Shown here piece by piece: positions 45,118 to 64,000 of a DNA stretch of 64,000 nucleotides (its first letter is position 1; every line of letters begins with the position of its first letter). The DNA lies in assembly GCA_041937175.2 (NCBI GenBank), contig CP166615.1:2656001-2720000 (forward strand), written 5' to 3'. Source of the stretch: Limnothrix sp. BL-A-16 (GTDB lineage: Bacteria > Cyanobacteriota > Cyanobacteriia > CACIAM-69d). The translations under genes and the position numbers were made by a program. The notes below the pieces were generated by a model. The model had not been told where the DNA came from. It ran no database searches and was given only the letters and a program-made list of their open reading frames with translations.

Positions 45118-45921
45118 ATGCATGGGCCCATTCCGGAACACCGCTTTTTTGCTTATCTAACTTGGCAAGAGATCGCGACCTTGCCCGATCGGGAGCGGGC
45201 CGTGGTGATTTTGCCGGTGGGGGCGATCGAGCAACATGGGCCCCACTTGCCCCTGAATGTGGACAGCGCGATCGTGAACGGAATTCTCGGGCGATCGCTC
45301 CAATGGCTCGATCAACAACGGCCCGACGTGGTGGCCTATGCCCTGCCACCGTTGTTCTACGGCAAATCCAACGAACATCTGGCGCTGCCGGGAACCATTT
45401 CCCTCAGCGCCACCACGCTCCTGTCCTTGGTGATGGACATTGGCCACAGCCTCTATCGATCGGGCTTTCGGAAGTTGCTGTTGCTGAATGGCCATGGGGG
45501 ACAGCCCCAGGTGTTGGATGTTGCCGCCACGGATCTCCATGAGCGATATCCCGACTTTTGGACCTATTCCTGTTTTGTGTGGCGATCGGCCAATTACAAA
45601 CCCCTGTTGAACCCGGCGGAAACCCTGGGAATGCACGCGGGTGATGCGGAAACCTGCGTGATGTTGGCCCTTGATCCCGATCGGGTGCGGATGCAACGGG
45701 CCCAGGCAGAGATGCCCCTGATCCATCCGGGCAAGCGACTGGGGCCCAAGGGAGCCTTAACCTACGCCTGGACAATTCAAGATCTGAGCCAAAGTGGCGT
45801 GATTGGTGACCCAACGGCGGCGGCGGCCGATCGGGGCGAACAGATTATTGAACTGCTCGCCCGCAACTGGGCTGAGATCCTGGCCGAAATCTACGACTAC
45901 TACCCGATCGCCCAGCCCTAG
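45118..45921 (+). CDS. Creatininase family protein
   Basis: LPVGAIEQHGPHLP...D, GKSNEH...PGT, NGHGG, HAGDAET, SGVIGDP. Confidence 0.9.
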   Translation: MHGPIPEHRFFAYLTWQEIATLPDRERAVVILPVGAIEQHGPHLPLNVDSAIVNGILGRSLQWLDQQRPDVVAYALPPLFYGKSNEHLALPGTISLSATTLLSLVMDIGHSLYRSGFRKLLLLNGHGGQPQVLDVAATDLHERYPDFWTYSCFVWRSANYKPLLNPAETLGMHAGDAETCVMLALDPDRVRMQRAQAEMPLIHPGKRLGPKGALTYAWTIQDLSQSGVIGDPTAAAADRGEQIIELLARNWAEILAEIYDYYPIAQP

Positions 45922-47516
45922 CCCAGGATGGCCCAACTGTTGAAACTACTGGACAAGTTGGCAGGCGCATTGGGGAAGGTAGCGATCGTTTGCACGCCGG
46001 ATCCGTTGTTGAACTGCAACGCTACCCCCGTACCGCTACTGACAAAGGCAAACCCGCCCCGCTCCGGATCCACCGAAAACACCCGCAGGGTCGTAATTCC
46101 CCCAAATCCGGTGCTCCGAATCACCAATTTGTCCAACGTGGGGTCAAAGTCCGTCAGCACATCACCCCCTTCAGCGGGCGTGTTGTAAATAAAGAAATCG
46201 CTGCCCCCCGTGGCCAGCAACGTATCAGACCCCACGCCCCCTTCCATGGAGTCATTGCCCTCGCCGCCATCAATCAAATCGTTGCCGCCACTGCCCTTCA
46301 GCAAATCTGCACCGCCCAAACCAGTGATCGTATCGTTGCCATCTAGCGCATCGATCGTGTCATCCCCAAACGTGCCTTGAATATTGTCATTGCCGGTGGA
46401 GGGCTGGGTGGAACCGGTGCTGCCCGTGCCGCCCGTGCTGCCGCTCACGCCGCCCGTGGTGGTATCTGTGCCCACGGGGGTGAGGAAACTGAGGCGTTGA
46501 CTATTCTTCACGATCGCAATCAGCCGCTCCGTGTTGTTGGTATCCACCAACGTCAGGAACGTATCGGCCGCATTCAGCCCCGTTCCCGGAACCACCACCA
46601 CCCGCGAGGCAATGTTGCCCTCGAACCCAATCAGGTCTTGGGTGAAGTCATAGTCAGCAATGATGTCAACGCCGCCTGCTTGTCCTGACACGATGAAGGT
46701 ATCGCCGCCATTGCCCCCAATCAGGGTGTTGCTGCCCTGGTTGCCGTACAGGGTGTCGTTGCCGTTATCCCCGGACAGGCGATCGTCTCCGGTACCGCCG
46801 AAGATCACATCTTCGTTTTCGCCGCCGTTGATCGTATCCGCATCGCCGTTGCCGTTGAGGGTGTCGCTGCCTTCGCCGCCGTTGATGATGTCAAGGTCGC
46901 GGCCGCCCAGAATCAGATCAGCACCGCTGTCACCATTGAGATCATCGTTACCATCGCCGCCATTGATGGTGTCGGCTTCCCGGCCGCCAAAGACAACATC
47001 ATCTCCTCGACTGCCATCGATTCGATCGTTCCCTTGGCTGCCAAAAATCAGGTCATTGCCTTGGCCACCAAAGATCACATCGTTGCCCAAATCTCCGAAC
47101 AGGATGTCTTCGCCCTCGTTGCCTTGCAGCAGGTCATCGCCCTGGCCACCGTAGAGGGTATCGGCTCCCACGTCGCCCCATAGGGTGTCGTTCCCTTGGC
47201 TGCCTCGCAGGATGTCGGGATCTTGGCCACCGAAGAGCAGATCGTTGCCATCGTTCCCATCCAGCAAATCGTTATCTTCGTTGCCGTAAAGGGTGTCGTT
47301 TCCCTTGCCGCCAAAGAGTTGGTCGCTGCCAAACCCCCCTTGCAGGAAGTCGTTGCCGTCGTTGCCATTGAGAATGTCGTTGTCGCGGCCCCCTTGGAGG
47401 GCATCGTTACCGGCTAAGCCAATGAGGGTGTCGCTCCCTTCGTTGCCAAACATTTGGTCGTTGTCATTGGTTCCGGTGAGGAGGTTGGGAAGGTTGTTAC
47501 CGTTAATGATGGCCAT
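45918..47516 (-). CDS. RTX/hemolysin-type calcium-binding repeat protein
   Basis: About 30 GGxGxDxLx nonapeptides, a G/S/T-rich linker and a second short RTX block; no N-terminal signal peptide. Confidence 0.92.
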   Translation of the reverse strand: MAIINGNNLPNLLTGTNDNDQMFGNEGSDTLIGLAGNDALQGGRDNDILNGNDGNDFLQGGFGSDQLFGGKGNDTLYGNEDNDLLDGNDGNDLLFGGQDPDILRGSQGNDTLWGDVGADTLYGGQGDDLLQGNEGEDILFGDLGNDVIFGGQGNDLIFGSQGNDRIDGSRGDDVVFGGREADTINGGDGNDDLNGDSGADLILGGRDLDIINGGEGSDTLNGNGDADTINGGENEDVIFGGTGDDRLSGDNGNDTLYGNQGSNTLIGGNGGDTFIVSGQAGGVDIIADYDFTQDLIGFEGNIASRVVVVPGTGLNAADTFLTLVDTNNTERLIAIVKNSQRLSFLTPVGTDTTTGGVSGSTGGTGSTGSTQPSTGNDNIQGTFGDDTIDALDGNDTITGLGGADLLKGSGGNDLIDGGEGNDSMEGGVGSDTLLATGGSDFFIYNTPAEGGDVLTDFDPTLDKLVIRSTGFGGITTLRVFSVDPERGGFAFVSSGTGVALQFNNGSGVQTIATFPNAPANLSSSFNSWAILG

Positions 47517-47943
47517 GGGGCGCTCCAAGGTGGGCTACAGTCCTGCGGGCGAACCGATGCGTGAGAAGGCTGAAGATGGGGTGATGGTGGGTGTGGCTCG
47601 CGCGAATCGATGATGGTCGATTTGTTCTGGGGTTGTCAAATGGGGGATGTGCCGGAAATGGCGGGTTTTGGGCGGGTGCGAAGCGGAGAACTTGGGCAAG
47701 TGGGGTCAGGAATTGGCTGGGATCCCTGGGGCGATCGGGAGGGGGCAAACCCGATTGTTAACATAGGCTTGCGTGGGGTGACCCCGCACGGCGTTGGGGT
47801 GGGGTGGTTCAGGAAATCCGGAAGGGACGGGGCGATCGATCAGTTCGGTCAAAGCAGCCCAGGGCCGATCGGCCCCAGTCGTTTGCGTCCTAGATTCCCA
47901 ATCTGAGCGGTATTGCAGCGCACAAAGCAGAGGTTTTTGATTC

Positions 47944-53557: not shown

Positions 53558-56500
53558 CTAGCGGGCCCCTAGCTCGCCCCGTTGCCAAGCGGCAAACAGT
53601 TGCTCAAAGGCTAGCCCCATCAGTGTTGAGTAGCGGCGACTGTCAAAGAAAACCGGGTTGGCCGCCATAGCCCGCTGGATGCGATCGCTCAAGGATTGCC
53701 GCCAGTCACGGTTTTTAGCCAACCGCACCGCCAATTGCAGATAGTCCGCCTCATCGGCCGCAATCAGCTCCGGAATGCGCAGCGATTGCAACAGGGCCGA
53801 GGCCATCCGCGATCGGAACGAAACCCCTTCCACCACCACGGGCGGCATTCCCACCAGCAACGGATCGATCGTGGAGTTCACCCCGGCAAAGGGGAACGAA
53901 TCCAAATAAACATCCCCCAACTTCAGACATTCGCGAATGTCAGCAATGGTGGGCAAGGGATTCAAAATCACCAGGCGCTGCGGATCCACACCCACGGCGG
54001 CCAAGTCCGATCGAAACCGATCGATGAACGGTTGCGCGGGATAATTTTGCCCCCAATTGGGATTGAACGGATAGAGCACCAACACCGAATCCGCCACCTG
54101 TGCCAGCAGTTTCACCCAGACCGATCGCAACTCCGGCACAATTTTGTTGAAATTGGCCCCGGACATATAAACCGTGGTTTGATCCGTGGCTCCCCAAGAA
54201 GCCCGCGAGGGTTGAATCGTCGCCGTTTGGGGCAACACGTCATAGTTAAAGGCATGGGCCGGCCCTTCAAGGGCCAACAGCTTTTCCGTGTAGCGCGCTT
54301 GGGCATCGGTCGTCTCCGTCAGCGACCCGGAAATATAGGCATCTACATGGGTCATCCCCGTGGTGACCGGTGCTGAGGTGGACATCACCTGCACTCGGGC
54401 CAGGCGCTGCACCGCCAACACCGTAATCGGATTGGTCACCATGGTGACATTCGTGCCAATCAACAGCAGATCCAGGTCATCGGCCCGCATCCGGGCCGCC
54501 TGTTGGGCCAAGCTCCCTTGCAAATGCACGAACTGATCGGCACGGCTGGCGCAATATTGCTCCAGGGGATGGCCGGTGGCAAAGACGCTATAGAGAATGA
54601 TCTCAAAGCGCGATCGATCTAAATATTCAAAGGCCGGCAGGGTGGTGAAGGTTTCCGTTTGGGGCGTGAAGTGATCCTTCAAAATCCCTACCCGCAGCTT
54701 TTGCCGCTGGGGATCCCTGGGCCCAAACCGATAATCGACCATTTCGCCCTGATCCTTCAGGGTTTTCGCAATCAGGAACGCTCGCTTGCGATAGATATCC
54801 GTTGGGCTGTCGGCAGTGAAATACAAAGGCGTAAAAGTGCCGCGATAGGCCAGCCAGCGGGCCAGTTTTTGGGAAACCTCATCTTCAGGACGCGTTTCGT
54901 TGGTGCGATAGACCTGGTTAGTCCAGCGGGTGATGTGCTGGGCAAAGCGATCGGCATCGCCCACCTCTTGAAAATAGAGGGGGGCTTCCTGCATGTAGAG
55001 GGCATAGGCCTCTAGGAACCATTGGGGCAAGTAGATCGCGCCATATTCCAAGGGCAATTGATAGGCCCGGCAATACATCATCAGGATGATGAAGTTGCGA
55101 AGCTGGCTCAGGGTTTTGATGCCGCCCTGGAGGCTGCTGATCAGGGGTTCAATGAACGATCGCTCGTCCGCGGTCCAGGGTTCATAGCGCAAGTCCGTTT
55201 CCACCAGGGCCTTGCTCGCTTGACCCAATCGGGCCAGGTAGGCCTCATCGAGGCGATCGAACGGAATTCGCAACCATTGTTCCGCCAATTGGCGACGGGC
55301 ATTTCGCAAGCGTTTGATCGCCTTGGGATCGGTGGAACGCTGGCGATAGGCGGCCACGGCCTGTTTCACCTCATTCACCAGGGGCACAAACAGCACCACC
55401 ATGGAAGCCAGAGGGGTAATCTCCCGCACTAGGGCTTGGGTCTCCTCGGTTGTGGCAGTGGTGGTAGTTGTGGCCAAGGGGGCGATCGGGGTCGGATCCG
55501 CCGGAGCGGTTGAGTCCGGGGCCTCGGGATCCATTTGCACCAGGCAGTTAATGACGGCCGAGCGGATCTCGATCGAGTCTTCACAACGGAGCGCTTCCCG
55601 CAGTTGGGTGATCGCCGTTTCCCAATCGGCCCGCTTCAGGCTGTCTTGGGCCACCCCGATCGCGTATTGGGCATAGTACTGGAGGGCACGGCGAGCCAAG
55701 CGATCGCGCCGATCGGCGGGGAGATAGGCTCGGGCCAAGTCAATGGCGCGGCGGGTGTCGGCAATGTTGGCCCCGGTGCGGGTGAGTTTGGAGGTGGTGG
55801 AGCCGTCATGCCGCCGAAACACCGCCAAGGGTTCTGGCTCAAACCACAGGCCCCAACGACTGGCTAGGCGCTGCCACATTTCCCAATCGGCCGCCGAGGC
55901 CGCCGCCGGGTCAAAGCCTCCCAATTCCTCATAGGCCGCACGACGCACCACGATCGCGGAAAATTGCACCCGTTGGCACTGGGCAATCCGATCGACCCAA
56001 TCACTCACCGGCCCAGCCGTTTCCCGTTCCAGTTCAGAAGTCCAAATAATCCGCCCTTGCTGATCGATATGGTGATGCCGACAGAGCACCATCCCCACCC
56101 GATCGCCCACCTGCTCGATCGCCCGGGTCATCCGCTCCACAAATCCCGGCAGCAATCCATCATCCTGGTGCAACAGCAGCACCCATTGGCCAGACGATCG
56201 GCTTAAACAATCCTGCCAATTGCCCAGCAGTCCTCGATTGTTCGGCTGACGAGTGTACAGCACCCGATCGCCTGCCATCCGCTGCACGATCGCCCGCACA
56301 TCCACCCGATCGGACGCATCATCCAGCACCTCGATCTGCATTCGATCGGCCGGCAGCGCCTGATCCAACACACTTTGCAGCGCGAGGGCAAATTGCTGCG
56401 GATCGGGGTTATAAACCGGCAGCATCACCGACCACAGGGGCCGCTCCGTTCCCGCTGATACCGGAGCCAGATGTGGCCGCTCGGATTTCAGCAGCCGATC

Positions 56501-59290: not shown

Positions 59291-61039
59291 TCAGGTCAAC
59301 GCGCCCAAACGATCGAGCAGTTGCACCAAGTCCGCCACCTCTACCCAAATATCTTCGTGATTGGCGACGGCCCGGGATTGTTCGATCGACAGACCCAGCC
59401 CCTCCGGGTCTGCCCCCAGCAAATAGCCGTAATGCAGGTGCATGTAATGGCTAATCACCCAAAACAAACCCGGGACGGATTTGGGCGAAAATAGCTCAAT
59501 CACGCGAGTTTCGGGCGCACAGAACACCAGGTTAATCAACCCAGCGCCGTGGGGCGCAACAATTACCTTAGCCCGCTGAAACAGCGCGATTTGCTCTGCC
59601 AAGGACAGACGACTGAGAACAATGGTTTGAAACCCGAGGGGTTCTAGGATGGCCAACAGGGCTTCCTCGTTGGCCACACGGCGATAGTTGGCATCTTGGC
59701 GGCTGATGTAGAGTCGATCGCCCCCCAGATTCGGGGCCGCTCCCTCGCCCAGCCCAGCAAAGTGATCGCACAAAAACTGACAGCCCCAACGCGGTGGCTT
59801 CCAGTTGCCGTAGCGACAGGCGATCGAGGGAACCACCAGGCGATCGGCTGTGAGATGCGGTTGCCAGGTACTCTCGATCGTTTTGTCAGCGGGAATACCC
59901 AGCCAATCAAGGGTTTCCTGCTGAAAGGGAGTCAGCGATCGGCTAAACACCACAAACCAATCGATTTTCGTCAGCCCCTCGGCACTGCGCCGCAACAACT
60001 CAAATCGCGGCAGAAAATCAATCATCCAGTGAAAATAATTGGTTCCCCCCGCGATCGGCAAAAACGCCACGGTTCCCGGTAGCGCTTTGCAGGGTGGCAA
60101 GGTTTCAGATGCCGCCACCAGGGCCGCGCTGTGGCCCGACAGATCATCCAACAGTCGCCCATCGGGGCCCATCACCACCGTATTGGACCAGTCACTCCAG
60201 GCCCGACCACCGGTAACCCAAGCCAGGTAAGGATTGAGATCATCGGCTCGATTGTCGTGCCAGATGGGATGGTCGTTGGGGCCAATCGTTGGGGGTGGTG
60301 GCAGAATCAGTCCCTTAGCCTGGGTTTCGAGGGTGATTAACTCCAGACGCACCGCCGGATGGGCAGCGGCAATGATTTCGCAAAAGGGCCTGTGAGGTGA
60401 AAAATCGCGCACCACCGTGGCAGGGATGGCGCGATTAAAACAATCCGTGGCTTCTCGAGGGCGATCGATCGCTTGCAAGAGATGACCCAATAACCCGTAA
60501 AGCGGCCACAGGCGAGGTTCTGCCTGTAATGCAGCCAGGGTGTGGGTGAGGATCGATCGCGTACGATCCAGGGCCAACCAGCGATCGGCCAGCCCGCGTA
60601 TGGCCGCCTCATCAATGACCAAGGGATGGCTCAGGTACAGTGCCTTCAATCGCTCGATTACCCACCCATCTTGATCCAGCTCGATCGCCGATCGGATCCA
60701 AGCCAAGTGCAAATCTGGACGGTGGGGCGCAAGGTCGATCGCTCGATCATAGGCAGCAATTGCCGCTTCCCCCTGATTCAGATCGCCGTAGAGCTTTGCC
60801 AACCGCCCCCACAGATCACCATCTTTTGGGTCGAGGGCGATCGCCCGCTCCCAAGCTGCGATTGCTGCCATCGGTTGTTCCCGAGCCACCAGCACCAACC
60901 CTAGCGCCCGATAGCCGTCCGGCCGCTCCGGTTCTGCGGCAATCCACCGCCGACAGGCGGCGATCGCCGTCGTCCAATTTCCCCGTTCAAAGGCTGCTTG
61001 GGCCTGCTGTTCAATGTCGCCTAGGGTCTGTTGACTCAC
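59291..61039 (-). CDS. TPR protein with C-terminal GT61 (DUF563) domain
   Basis: N-terminal TPRs; NYFHWMIDFLPR, LYISR....RR..NE, EQIALF..A..IVAPHGAGL.N..FC, VIELF. GTG 61039 follows a G-rich RBS. Confidence 0.88.
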   Translation of the reverse strand: MSQQTLGDIEQQAQAAFERGNWTTAIAACRRWIAAEPERPDGYRALGLVLVAREQPMAAIAAWERAIALDPKDGDLWGRLAKLYGDLNQGEAAIAAYDRAIDLAPHRPDLHLAWIRSAIELDQDGWVIERLKALYLSHPLVIDEAAIRGLADRWLALDRTRSILTHTLAALQAEPRLWPLYGLLGHLLQAIDRPREATDCFNRAIPATVVRDFSPHRPFCEIIAAAHPAVRLELITLETQAKGLILPPPPTIGPNDHPIWHDNRADDLNPYLAWVTGGRAWSDWSNTVVMGPDGRLLDDLSGHSAALVAASETLPPCKALPGTVAFLPIAGGTNYFHWMIDFLPRFELLRRSAEGLTKIDWFVVFSRSLTPFQQETLDWLGIPADKTIESTWQPHLTADRLVVPSIACRYGNWKPPRWGCQFLCDHFAGLGEGAAPNLGGDRLYISRQDANYRRVANEEALLAILEPLGFQTIVLSRLSLAEQIALFQRAKVIVAPHGAGLINLVFCAPETRVIELFSPKSVPGLFWVISHYMHLHYGYLLGADPEGLGLSIEQSRAVANHEDIWVEVADLVQLLDRLGALT

Positions 61040-61067
61040 GCCCCCTCCCAAATTTTGAGGCAGATCC

Positions 61068-62222
61068 TCAACGCCGCTGCCATGCTGCCAAAGCAGCCGT
61101 TACCACCGGAGCCAACCAATCGGGCAACTGAGGATAAATGCGCTCCCAAACTGAGCGATCGACCGCTGGAATTGGATAGGCCATGGCCACCAATGCTGTT
61201 CGGATCGCTGATTCGGGTTCCGGCAGACCACTGCAATATTCCACAAAATCTTGTAAAAATTCCCAATCCGAAGGCAGAATTGGCCGCTTGGAAAAATGAC
61301 TAGCAATCAGCCGCTGATAGAGTTGGCCTTTACGGGTATGCCAGGCCGTTTCCAACTCCGTTGCTGGAGTCTCGTACCACTGTTGGGAATATTGAGCACG
61401 GGCATTGCTCAGTTCTGCCAAAGCTCCCCGATGTTCAGGCGATCGCTCGTAAAGATCCAAGCAGCTATCCACCCAGTTCAACCAAAACTCATCCCATTCT
61501 GGCAACCCCGGTTCTCCCAGTTCGCGCGGCGGGAATGAGGGAGCGATCGCCCCGGCGGCCGTCCGTTTGCGAAGGAACCCATTCAGGCACCAGGTCATAT
61601 TCCGTTCGTAGAAGTCACAGAAATAGGTGTCAATGTCGTATTCATCCCCACAAACCATCAGAAATTCTTCCAAGGCCTGCAACGGTTTCCCGGCACTGAG
61701 ACTATCTTCCACAATCACATAATCGCCCTGCTCAAGCCAGCAATGGAAAAACTCCAACACCGCAATGGTCGTTCCGTAGGAGTGATCCGCATCCTCAATC
61801 ACCAACCAAGGGCGCGGTAGGCTGGCCAACCAGTCCGGCGAAAGGGTTTGCCCCAAGTCTCGGCCATCCCCTGCCAAAAAGGTCACCCTTGGATGGCTCA
61901 CATCGGTCACGGGGTTGATGTCGATCGAGTAGATCTGCCCGTCAATTCCAAAATTATTCAGGTGATCTCCCAACCAGAGGGCACTTCCCCCGGCGAAGGA
62001 ACCAATTTCAAAAATAGTGCGCGGCTTTAGCTCCCAGAGCAGCAGGGAATAGAGTGCCCAGTCAAAGGGATTTTTGATTGTCTGAATGCCCCGATAGCTG
62101 TAGTTGCGAGCGGCCATCTCGATCGCCACAGCGTCGCTACCGGTCAAAAAGGAGGTTTGGATGGGGCGCACTGAATCCCAGGGGCGATCGCGCCAGTGGC
62201 AAAACCGGCTCGCATCATTCAT
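61068..62222 (-). CDS. CmcI-like SAM-dependent O-methyltransferase with C-terminal helical module
   Basis: YRGIQTIKNPFD, LKPRTIFEIGSFAGGSALW, VIEDADHSY, GDYVIVED, NGFLR. The frame is open upstream to 62375. Confidence 0.82.
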   Translation of the reverse strand: MNDASRFCHWRDRPWDSVRPIQTSFLTGSDAVAIEMAARNYSYRGIQTIKNPFDWALYSLLLWELKPRTIFEIGSFAGGSALWLGDHLNNFGIDGQIYSIDINPVTDVSHPRVTFLAGDGRDLGQTLSPDWLASLPRPWLVIEDADHSYGTTIAVLEFFHCWLEQGDYVIVEDSLSAGKPLQALEEFLMVCGDEYDIDTYFCDFYERNMTWCLNGFLRKRTAAGAIAPSFPPRELGEPGLPEWDEFWLNWVDSCLDLYERSPEHRGALAELSNARAQYSQQWYETPATELETAWHTRKGQLYQRLIASHFSKRPILPSDWEFLQDFVEYCSGLPEPESAIRTALVAMAYPIPAVDRSVWERIYPQLPDWLAPVVTAALAAWQRR

Positions 62223-62344
62223 TAGCCCAGAATTTGGGTCTGAGGCTGACGGTGTAGCAGGCTCTGCCCGATCGCCGGCCCCCGATTCGGAGCCAGCAAC
62301 CTTCGTTAATTCAGGTAATTGAGGACTACCAGCCTCACCGTTCC

Positions 62345-64000
62345 CTAGGAAGTCATTTTTTTTTGAGCCTCTGACTCAAATACCGCCGCATACAGCGGGA
62401 ACAGCCAACCGGGCAAACGGGTTGCCGCGTCCTTCACCTGCATTTGTCCCGGCGCGTAGTACATCATTACGCCCAAGAACGCATTCAAACTACCGGGTTG
62501 ATCGAAACCACGCGCTACCGTCTCCGCCAGCTTCACCAACAGTTCCCGCTCCCCATCCGTCAACGGCTCCCGTTGGAATCCTGATTTCAGATACATGCCA
62601 TAACGGCGGCCCAGTTCACTATTGAACGCAGCCTCCAGTTGAGACGTGGGAACCGTCAGCCAAAACTCCGCCACCCGTTGACGCAATTGGCGCAATTCCG
62701 CCACCGTTTCCCCATCTTCCGGGTCAATTTCGTAGAGATTGGAGCAACCCAAGAAGCGGTTCAGAAACACCATGTCCTCGGCTAAATTGGGAGGCTGGCT
62801 CACGGAGGGTGGAGCAGCAGCCGGTGCAGCCATGGGGACAGTTGGTTGCGGTGACGGCACTAAGGGAGCAGATGTCGCTTGGCCCGCTTCAAAAATTCGC
62901 TGATAGTCCGGTAGCAACCAAGCCGGTAAACGATTGGCTGCATCCCGTACCTGCATTTTGCCCGGCGGCAGATACATCATGATGGCCAACAGCGCATTCA
63001 GCCCCGGGTAGCGATCGATTCCCTGACTGATCAGCCCCGTCAACTCCTGCACAACGGATTCCTCTTCGGGGCGCAGGGGATAGTTTTGATAGCCACTGTC
63101 AAGCAATGCCAAGTAGCGGCGGCCAAACTCACTCCTATAGAGGGATTCCAGCTCCTCGAAAGGGGTCTGGGCCCAAATTTGCCCCACCTGTTGACGAATT
63201 AATCGCAGCTCTTCCGCGATCGAGGTTTCTTCGGGGTCGATGTAGTAGAGATTGGCACAACCTAACAACCGATTCAGGAAGGTCATGTCCTGATGCAGCG
63301 GCACGGTTGCTGAGGTTGGCGGGGCAGTTGGTGACGGGGTTGCGACTGGCTGGGGTGGGGCGATCGGCTGTGGCGCATGGGCCGTTCCCGAAGACCCATG
63401 GTGTTCAAAGACCGATCGATAGTCCGACAGCAACCAAGCCGGAAGCTTTGCTTGGGCCTGGTCAACCTTCATCTTGCCAGCGGGGAGATACAGCATCACT
63501 CCCAAAAATGCCTGCAATCCAACCGGATGCTGGACGGTATGCTGACTCACTTGATTAGTGAGAGATTGAAGGTAGTTGGCTTCTTCATCCGTGAGGGGTT
63601 GGGATTGGAAGCCGCTGTGCAGTAAAGCACGATAGGCCTGGCCCACAGAGCCTTGATACAGGGCTGAGAGTTGCTCCGCTGGCGCAGCCTTCCAGAACTC
63701 AGCAGTCTGGCGGCGCAGTTCCCGCAGGAGGTTAATCGTGCTTTGATCGTTGGGGTCGAGACCGTAGACCCGTACAACGTTCGTGAGGCGATCGCACAGC
63801 CACTGGGTGTAGGGATCGGTGGCAGGGGAGGTGGGAATGGAAAGGGCCATAGGGCTGCTGAGTTCGGCTTTTCGGCGCAATAGCTCCTCGAATTTTAGTT
63901 CGAGTTGGTCAATCGATCGCTCAATGTCAAATTTGGCAAAGGCTGCTGCTTGTCCCGTGGCGGCCAAGCGTGCCCAACGTTCCGGATCCTGCGGCAAACT
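62345..64000 (-). CDS. 3' part of a probable GT4-type glycosyltransferase ending in three tandem ~130-aa helical modules (start beyond the window)
   Basis: Frame open to the window edge; first ~40 aa (DPERWARLAATGQAAAFAKFDIERSIDQLE) resemble the last helices of a GT-B/GT4 domain; three internal repeats separated by P/A/T linkers. Confidence 0.75.
   Translation of the reverse strand, partial: SLPQDPERWARLAATGQAAAFAKFDIERSIDQLELKFEELLRRKAELSSPMALSIPTSPATDPYTQWLCDRLTNVVRVYGLDPNDQSTINLLRELRRQTAEFWKAAPAEQLSALYQGSVGQAYRALLHSGFQSQPLTDEEANYLQSLTNQVSQHTVQHPVGLQAFLGVMLYLPAGKMKVDQAQAKLPAWLLSDYRSVFEHHGSSGTAHAPQPIAPPQPVATPSPTAPPTSATVPLHQDMTFLNRLLGCANLYYIDPEETSIAEELRLIRQQVGQIWAQTPFEELESLYRSEFGRRYLALLDSGYQNYPLRPEEESVVQELTGLISQGIDRYPGLNALLAIMMYLPPGKMQVRDAANRLPAWLLPDYQRIFEAGQATSAPLVPSPQPTVPMAAPAAAPPSVSQPPNLAEDMVFLNRFLGCSNLYEIDPEDGETVAELRQLRQRVAEFWLTVPTSQLEAAFNSELGRRYGMYLKSGFQREPLTDGERELLVKLAETVARGFDQPGSLNAFLGVMMYYAPGQMQVKDAATRLPGWLFPLYAAVFESEAQKKMTS

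Follow-up and report, generated by a model that had tools for sequence, protein, structure and literature searches.

In a 64,000-nucleotide (nt) stretch of the genome of the cyanobacterium Limnothrix sp. BL-A-16 (contig CP166615.1; the whole stretch is hereafter the window, its numbering is used throughout, and the genome itself serves as the reference, G000), two open reading frames (ORFs) on the minus strand, one for a multi-domain glycosyltransferase (GT) and one for a CmcI-type methyltransferase (MT), meet at a run of nine adenines (A9). Comparison across related loci indicates that this A9 is a conserved, programmed frame-transition site, through which part of the output of the upstream ORF very probably passes into the methyltransferase frame. 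We consider it somewhat better than an even bet that the transition occurs by RNA polymerase slippage, which would convert A9 into A10 in the transcript and give rise to a GT-MT fusion. The junction is a conserved candidate for recoding that the sequence comparisons support well; as an A9 slippery run it is of a known kind, and its gene context is new.

The A9 junction and its conservation

The minus-strand junction reads GCT CAA AAA AAA ATG ACT TCC TAG. The 0-frame passes through the run (62356..62364) as cAA AAA AAA Atg and terminates three codons past it at a TAG (62345..62347), giving the upstream ORF the C-terminal end ...AAVFESEAQKKMTS*. The run lies in the overlap of the two ORFs: the -1 frame, closed on its 5' side by a TGA (62376..62378) that sets the 5' bound for a productive shift, opens 11 nt upstream of the A9, and the 0-frame stop is situated 9 nt downstream of it. 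From 62375 onward the -1 frame is open into the CmcI ORF, reading VRGSKKNDFLGNGEAGSPQLPELTKVAGSESGAGDRAEPATPSASDPNSGLMNDASRFCHWRD..., and the continuous read, ...SKKNDFLGNGEAGSPQLPELTKVAGSESGAGDRAEPATPSASDPNSGLMNDASRFCHWRD..., reaches the ORF with its ATG at 62222 and its end at 61068. Inside the A9, the heptamer A_AAA_AAA is in the register for a -1 shift, conforming to the X_XXY_YYZ pattern. The -1-frame codon overlapping the 0-frame TAG is CTA, a rare leucine codon, and a one-base deletion to A8 in G000 leads to an immediate TGA. The junction sequence and the open frame read exactly as in the first-pass annotation of the window, which had placed the A9 at 62356-62364 ahead of the TAG and had noted the open -1 frame from 62375 into the CmcI ORF. 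Its further statements, that this frame has no ATG, GTG or TTG before 62222 and that no clear ribosome-binding site precedes that position, are borne out by the frame read and by the preceding 20 bases, which are devoid of any GGAG/GAGG-type motif.

The same annotation had proposed an alignment of orthologous loci, and when this was made the A9, the frame disjunction and the open -1 linker were recovered in all six loci compared. A search of 61 related genomes recovered the ortholog only in two other species of the same genus (G001 and G002), and scans of genome and metagenome collections added three further loci. The set thus comprises G000, L021 (from G002), L022 (from G001), L023, L024 and L025, with L002 and L003, which are contained in L021 and L022, counted once. 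These represent three lineages, within which third-codon-position identity of the MT domain is 0.73-0.90 and between which it falls to 0.52-0.64. In other genera of the family the helical modules described below are present, with no CmcI ortholog at this junction. All six loci have exactly A9 in the same codon register (cAA/gAA AAA AAA Atn), a 0-frame stop three codons past the run (the tails being KKMTS*, KKMLS*, KKIPS* and KKILS*), and a -1 frame that is open up to a conserved RFC[HS]WRD motif. The linker between the run and this motif is otherwise hardly alignable across the loci; its lengths are 50, 50, 46, 51, 51 and 43 codons, and every insertion or deletion comprises whole codons. This conservation of both the ORF organization and the 9A run in non-identical homologs is the criterion of an earlier survey of such sites (PMC1088944).

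The distribution of start and stop codons in the linker adds to this picture. In L023 and L024 the linker has no ATG, GTG or TTG at all, and the first canonical start is a GTG located 26 codons within the conserved domain, in what the structure model predicts to be a helix. The linkers of L022 and L025 have only GTG/TTG, and an ATG is limited to G000 and L021. Furthermore, L022 and L025 have a TGA in the -1 frame that shares the run's first A, which confines productive entry to the interval between the run and the TAG. The core proposal of the first-pass annotation, a short GT alongside a longer GT-MT fusion, hence passes the comparative test, with two of the six loci offering no start before the domain.

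Two further features of codon choice point in the same direction. Every locus has CTA or TTA as the -1-frame leucine codon that covers the 0-frame TAG, and these two account for 12.6% of leucine codons genome-wide, an indication that selection acts on both frames and maintains the early 0-frame stop. In all six loci that leucine codon is followed by GGG, the two forming a small dual-coding patch (62345-62350 and its equivalents). Likewise, with genomic AAA:AAG codon usage at 51:49, the retention of three synonymous third-position adenines across three lineages is unlikely without selection.

Considered within one genome, the pattern is not beyond what chance would give: the 4.56-Mb, 55% GC genome has 9 A/T runs of at least 9 nt against about 9.5 expected under a model of independent, identically distributed bases, and a stretch of 41-50 codons is free of stops in 31-36% of windows drawn at random from the genome and in 14-33% of shuffled versions of the spacers. 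The caution already voiced in the first-pass annotation, that an open frame of around 45 codons is not rare, was thus apt. It is the conservation across loci that exceeds chance. Moreover, only this run among the 9 long A/T runs has two long same-strand open frames overlapping at it, and it is the sole homopolymer of at least 8 nt in the 13.7-kb loci L021-L023. As controls we used three other A9/T9 runs within open frames of G000, none of which is overlapped by a second long same-strand frame. One (G000:C1:1465601-1465609) is interrupted in both same-genus relatives; for another (G000:C1:3333134-3333142), G002 yielded no match, and in G001 the run is not preserved; the last (G000:C1:3577473-3577481) is intact in G002, and G001 yielded no match. 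Control runs were accordingly kept in one of the two alignable cases in G002 and in neither of two in G001.

The downstream ORF is free of stops in every lineage, and its ratio of nonsynonymous to synonymous differences (pN/pS) is 0.08 in the MT domain and 0.17 in the C-terminal module, with pS reaching 0.64. Judged by these ratios, the ORF is under strong purifying selection and is presumably made as a protein in all lineages.

Architecture of the upstream and downstream products

The upstream gene has only its 3' part in the window (62345..64000, minus strand), the whole ORF spanning approximately 65014..62345 and coding for 889 residues from its first methionine (MVRRF...). Its designation as a glycosyltransferase gene in the first-pass annotation stands insofar as a GT4 domain was found (Glycos_transf_1, PF00534; 110.8 bits against a cut-off of 26.4, residues 191-354), with the qualification that this domain lies outside the window. 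The in-window part, the last 550 residues, matches no Pfam family above cut-off; it consists of three copies of a ~140-residue, all-alpha module separated by proline-rich linkers. The first copy (63428..63853, minus strand; G000:C1:2719428-2719853) was matched by the module at the C-terminal end of the CmcI protein, and the second (62903..63334) and third (62378..62830), on the same strand, were delineated by homology search and alignment. The third copy, whose structure model is confident, with a predicted local distance difference test (pLDDT) score of 85, ends in ...LPGWLFPLYAAVFE immediately 5' of the run; in the module alignment the A9 therefore occupies the end of a module, where an inter-module linker of the upstream protein would start. 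Searches with the module model found no clear structural relative, the best E-value in a Foldseek comparison with the PDB being only 0.19 and the best Z-score in a wide VIA-align search being 6.7, which is under the meaningful level for helical proteins. Modules of this ~140-residue all-alpha type also occur in many cyanobacterial multi-domain GT/MT proteins, and a weak further copy is present at 55070-55369 within an 1867-residue GT protein of the window.

In the -1 frame, the run is followed by a linker of 50 codons (N...S; 62208..62357, minus strand) that is predicted to be disordered, includes the peptide NDFLGNGEAGSPQLPELTK and in G000 has the ATG at 62222-62220 as its sole in-frame start codon. 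The structure model of the complete 435-residue -1-frame read assigns pLDDT below 50 to residues 1-49 and shows a fold from about residue 50 on, consistent with the linker being a flexible tether. The first-pass annotation had likened this stretch to the internal linkers of the upstream protein; the likeness extends to low complexity and no further, there being 5 prolines in 50 residues here and 10 in 38 there. The methyltransferase domain proper (61560..62207, minus strand) is conserved from RFCHWRDR on and is of the CmcI/rhamnosyl O-methyltransferase type, as had been recognized from the sequence at first pass: residues 90-234 of the 435-residue read match PF04989 above its gathering score (55.4 bits against 23.2). 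From the family name and the surrounding glycan genes we infer that it is a putative sugar O-methyltransferase. Unexpectedly, the C-terminus of the CmcI ORF bears a fourth copy of the helical module (61086..61547, minus strand), with query residues ~277-430 matching the upstream modules, and the ORF closes with a stop at 61068..61070 (taken from the ORF list), the end of the predicted fusion of ~1315 residues.

Other CmcI homologs were encountered in the course of this comparison. G001 has a second, standalone paralog about 3 kb upstream of the junction (L022:2499-3233, L014; 53% identity) with its own methionine start and no module. A more distant homolog (L004, G027:C1:1680705-1681340; 42% identity) lies behind a second methyltransferase-like domain in a 345-residue open frame, and the search match for it was reported with one internal TGA.

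A search for longer homologs, in which the best 8000 candidates by shared words were scored, returned at least 126 matches, many of them cyanobacterial multi-domain proteins combining GT4 and CmcI. Thus P0003 (1455 residues) has GT4 at 15-346 and CmcI at 520-700 followed by GT41, P0001 (2170 residues) and P0009 (1706 residues) are similar, and in P0001 a helical module comes after CmcI and GT41; L005 combines an N-terminal domain, CmcI, the module and GT41 in a single frame. These single-ORF GT4-CmcI-GT41 proteins share the domain order of the predicted fusion, GT4 then CmcI then helical module, and hence establish a GT-MT fusion as a viable architecture. They differ in being read in one frame, presumably with no A run where the domains join, and in their distance, with 38-41% identity to the CmcI part and ~26% in GT4 for P0001, P0003 and P0009. 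Among the 126 matches listed, there was no fused ortholog, none exceeding 41% identity where coverage was above 75%, or 60% where it was ~45%.

Proposed mechanism of the frame transition and alternative explanations

Under standard decoding, the upstream ORF would yield the 889-residue glycosyltransferase, with GT4 and three helical modules, ending three codons past the run. We propose that RNA polymerase would slip on the nine template thymines, producing a fraction of mRNA with ten adenines. Such A10 mRNA would read ...AQKK and then NDFLG..., proceed through the disordered linker of ~50 residues and enter the CmcI-type sugar O-methyltransferase with its own helical module, resulting in a GT-MT fusion of ~1315 residues. 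The arrangement might serve to fix how much of the enzyme in a surface-glycan pathway bears the methyltransferase relative to the form that lacks it.

The first-pass annotation left both the transcriptional and the ribosomal route open; they would give an identical protein product, and the evidence on mechanism leans toward the transcriptional one without settling the matter. The main competitor is programmed -1 frameshifting by the ribosome at the same site and with the same products, in which tRNA-Lys(UUU) on A_AAA_AAA would re-pair perfectly in the -1 frame; we regard it as unlikely, though a contender to be taken seriously. It accords with the conserved nearby 0-frame stop and with the heptamer being correctly in register in all six loci, and A_AAA_AAA is listed among heptamers implicated in -1 frameshifting in PMC3711429; this last point also counts against polymerase slippage. 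On the other hand, nine adenines are retained where a ribosomal heptamer needs just seven. Minimum free energy calculations found no conserved or unusually stable RNA structure, either downstream (z-scores of -1.8 to +1.7 in windows of 60 and 100 nt, the sequence being unalignable past ~15 nt and the search covering structures other than pseudoknots) or upstream (-2.0 to 0.0). No internal Shine-Dalgarno stimulator was found upstream at a suitable distance: a Shine-Dalgarno-like GAGG does stand before the run in four of the six loci, but it is too close, just 3 nt away, and is missing from L022 and L025. Finally, the genome encodes both tRNA-Lys(UUU) and tRNA-Lys(CUU), and in PMC5009743 the presence of two tRNA-Lys species is tied to RNA polymerase slippage at the dnaX run of Thermus. 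The same source reports highly efficient in vivo slippage at runs of 9 A/T, and gives the RNA polymerase hybrid as 9-10 bp. Together these considerations favor transcriptional slippage, and the immediate TGA after A8 in G000 means that both non-fusion outcomes would end at once, as in Thermus dnaX.

A different possibility is that there is no recoding and that each ORF is an ordinary gene translated on its own, the methyltransferase, then of 384 residues, starting at ATG 62222, the A9 being merely inherited Q/E-K-K coding and the open linker incidental. In G000 and L021 an in-frame ATG does lie five codons before the conserved domain, standalone CmcI paralogs with their own methionine exist (L014, L026), the linker pN/pS of 0.67 is near neutral, and such open frames turn up in 14-36% of shuffles or random windows. 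Nevertheless, a scan of the minus strand between the ORFs, crude and tuned to the sigma-70 consensus, saw no promoter- or terminator-like site. Moreover, ahead of the conserved domain two of the six loci lack any canonical start and two more have only GTG/TTG, the relation of the frames and the restriction of linker indels to whole codons are seen in each of the three lineages, three synonymous third-position adenines are kept despite third-position identity of 0.52-0.64 and AAA:AAG usage of 51:49, and the control runs were mostly not kept. We therefore judge separate translation to be quite improbable. Variation of the DNA itself is less probable still. A phase-variable locus, switching within populations between A9 (off) and A10 (fused, on) by slipped-strand mispairing, would be in keeping with homopolymer tracts in glycosyltransferase genes being classic switches, of which a supplementary table of PMC3711429 gives LgtA and lgtD as examples, and with the tendency of DNA polymerase to slip on poly-A noted in that paper. 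However, the run is A9 in eight of eight sequences, never A8 or A10: the six loci, a lake-metagenome DNA contig (X1) aligned ungapped over 62056-62782 and an RNA-library contig (X14) aligned ungapped over 62171-62431. Contigs may miss minority alleles, and the 126 longer homologs listed include no fused ortholog of at least 70% identity; the phase-varied glycan methylation entertained at first pass thus fares poorly against the invariant run length, and we find it very improbable. Least credible, indeed close to negligible, is that the A9 is an assembly error for a true A10 in one ordinary gene, or the mark of a pseudogene decaying after an ancestral frameshift. Homopolymers are certainly error-prone on some sequencing platforms, and a miscalled A10 had been raised as a caveat in the first-pass annotation; this is contradicted by the identical A9 of the X1 and X14 contigs and of six assemblies that stem from different projects, and, as regards decay, by a downstream pN/pS of 0.08-0.17 in an ORF that is stop-free in all lineages.

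Several considerations nonetheless weigh against programmed slippage at the A9. The first and ninth adenines of the run are also constrained by the Q/E and N codons, and "exactly nine" is consequently not purely a nucleotide-level signal. All six loci belong to one genus-level clade and amount to about three independent observations, and a genome contig scan of a 185,579-species collection produced no other ortholog. In G000 the ATG at 62222 is present, so that independent initiation is possible in this genome. The linker pN/pS is 0.67 in the -1 frame as opposed to 0.80 and 1.26 in the other frames, values that do not discriminate coding from non-coding sequence; the internal linkers of the upstream protein, which are certainly translated, are likewise highly variable between lineages. 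The A9 in the RNA-library contig is the majority species to be expected under any model. We infer the occurrence, mechanism and efficiency of slippage from the sequence, A10 transcripts and the fusion protein being predictions of the comparison. A metatranscriptomic contig (X15) ends exactly at the edge of the run, at 62356; its end could stem from low depth or from a graph branch caused by run-length heterogeneity, and we have not used it as evidence.

Variable catalytic domains and the gene neighborhood

Comparison of the stretches ahead of the junction (L021:3595-6444, L022:3472-6459, L023:4066-6429 and L024:502-6429, against the window from 62345 to beyond 64000) revealed that the catalytic domains differ between loci: GT4 in G000, GT2 in L021 and L023, GT4 with Methyltransf_24 in L022, and two GT2 with one GT4 in the 1976-residue open frame of L024. 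L021 has GT2 even though its CmcI is 93% identical to that of G000. The constant part of the loci comprises the last module, the A9, the linker and CmcI, so that the junction behaves like one conserved unit placed behind enzymes that can be swapped. Such a pattern suggests that the repeated modules served as sites of recombination by which domains were exchanged. A more adventurous reading, which we offer as an unlikely conjecture, is that the module-A9-linker-CmcI unit is a portable recoding cassette, wherein slippage would fix what share of a glycan-building enzyme has a capping methyltransferase tethered to it. If true, the cassette would control the stoichiometry of glycan methylation or chain termination at the level of transcription, with a logic like that of WbdA:WbdD stoichiometry.

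Profile matches of the flanking ORFs place the locus within a long same-strand glycan cluster. Upstream of it are genes for a GT61 enzyme, two hexapeptide acyltransferases, an oxidoreductase, two DegT aminotransferases, an epimerase/dehydratase, an FkbM methyltransferase and a multi-GT protein of 1153 residues; on the downstream side the cluster codes for a TPR-GT61 protein and for the 1867-residue protein, which has four GT2 domains and one GT41 domain. The TPR-GT61 gene (59291-61051) is the next one after the junction; its open frame overlaps the end of the CmcI ORF in G000, L021 and L023, and its listed start is a TTG 16 nt past the CmcI stop (window 61051-61070). Unrelated to the junction is a 536-residue ORF at 45921-47528 with 12 stretches of RTX calcium-binding nonapeptide repeats (PF00353, 272 bits). 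No ABC transporter genes were seen in the examined flanks. In ABC-transporter-dependent O-antigen systems, as outlined in PMC11231755, terminal methylation caps the chain, and polymerase and terminator reside on one or on separate polypeptides. Purely by analogy, slippage at the A9 could set the proportion of methyltransferase-carrying enzyme.

Significance and comparison with known systems

Few non-mobile bacterial genes have a conserved, programmed frame transition, and this would be a rare case in an ordinary cellular gene: by the same criterion, the 2005 survey reports six groups of insertion sequence (IS) elements and one cellular (non-mobile) candidate (PMC1088944). If true, it would add a cyanobacterial surface-glycan enzyme pair to the recoded genes, would mean that what is annotated as two "genes" is a single functional unit, and would offer, in a non-pathogenic organism, a simple system open to testing for how slippage sets isoform ratios. 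In a limited collection of literature on CmcI frameshifting, Limnothrix glycosyltransferases and cyanobacterial transcriptional slippage we found no mention of it, and the supplementary data of PMC3711429 that were searched, two files of three, do not have it either.

Escherichia coli dnaX, with its -1 ribosomal frameshift at A_AAA_AAG, likewise features a Lys-Lys heptamer and two products from one gene. Frameshifting there involves an upstream Shine-Dalgarno sequence and a downstream stem-loop. At the A9 junction neither of these elements is conserved. A closer parallel is dnaX of Thermus thermophilus, which, according to PMC5009743, also has a nine-A/T run in a non-mobile cellular gene of a fairly GC-rich genome, nearby stops in the other frames, two tRNA-Lys species and two products per gene. 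It differs in that its long product is that of the 0-frame and slippage leads to the short one, whereas here slippage would lead to the long fusion; the gene families are also unrelated, and slippage is demonstrated in Thermus and predicted by comparison here (PMC5009743). In orfA/orfB of IS elements and in Staphylococcus aureus mapW, as presented in the survey sections of PMC1088944, overlapping ORFs are similarly fused via a conserved 9A run; in contrast to the IS cases, the present locus is not a mobile element, and its downstream ORF codes for a sugar methyltransferase. Shigella spa13 and mxiE, according to PMC5009743, likewise generate an extended product from a fraction of expression (25-30% for spa13), but the runs there are T-runs and the proteins are different ones, belonging to a pathogen's secretion system that is encoded on a plasmid.

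On the side of glycan assembly, the nearest systems are WbdA-WbdD, WbbB and ORF6-O7. Their spacer is a coiled coil, where here there is a compact helical module, and they involve no recoding; a chain-terminating role for the present CmcI enzyme is suggested by analogy only. They combine GT modules with a terminating methyltransferase in much the same manner, either fused via a helical spacer or as separate proteins, and the amount of terminator-bound polymerase influences the size of the glycan (PMC11231755).

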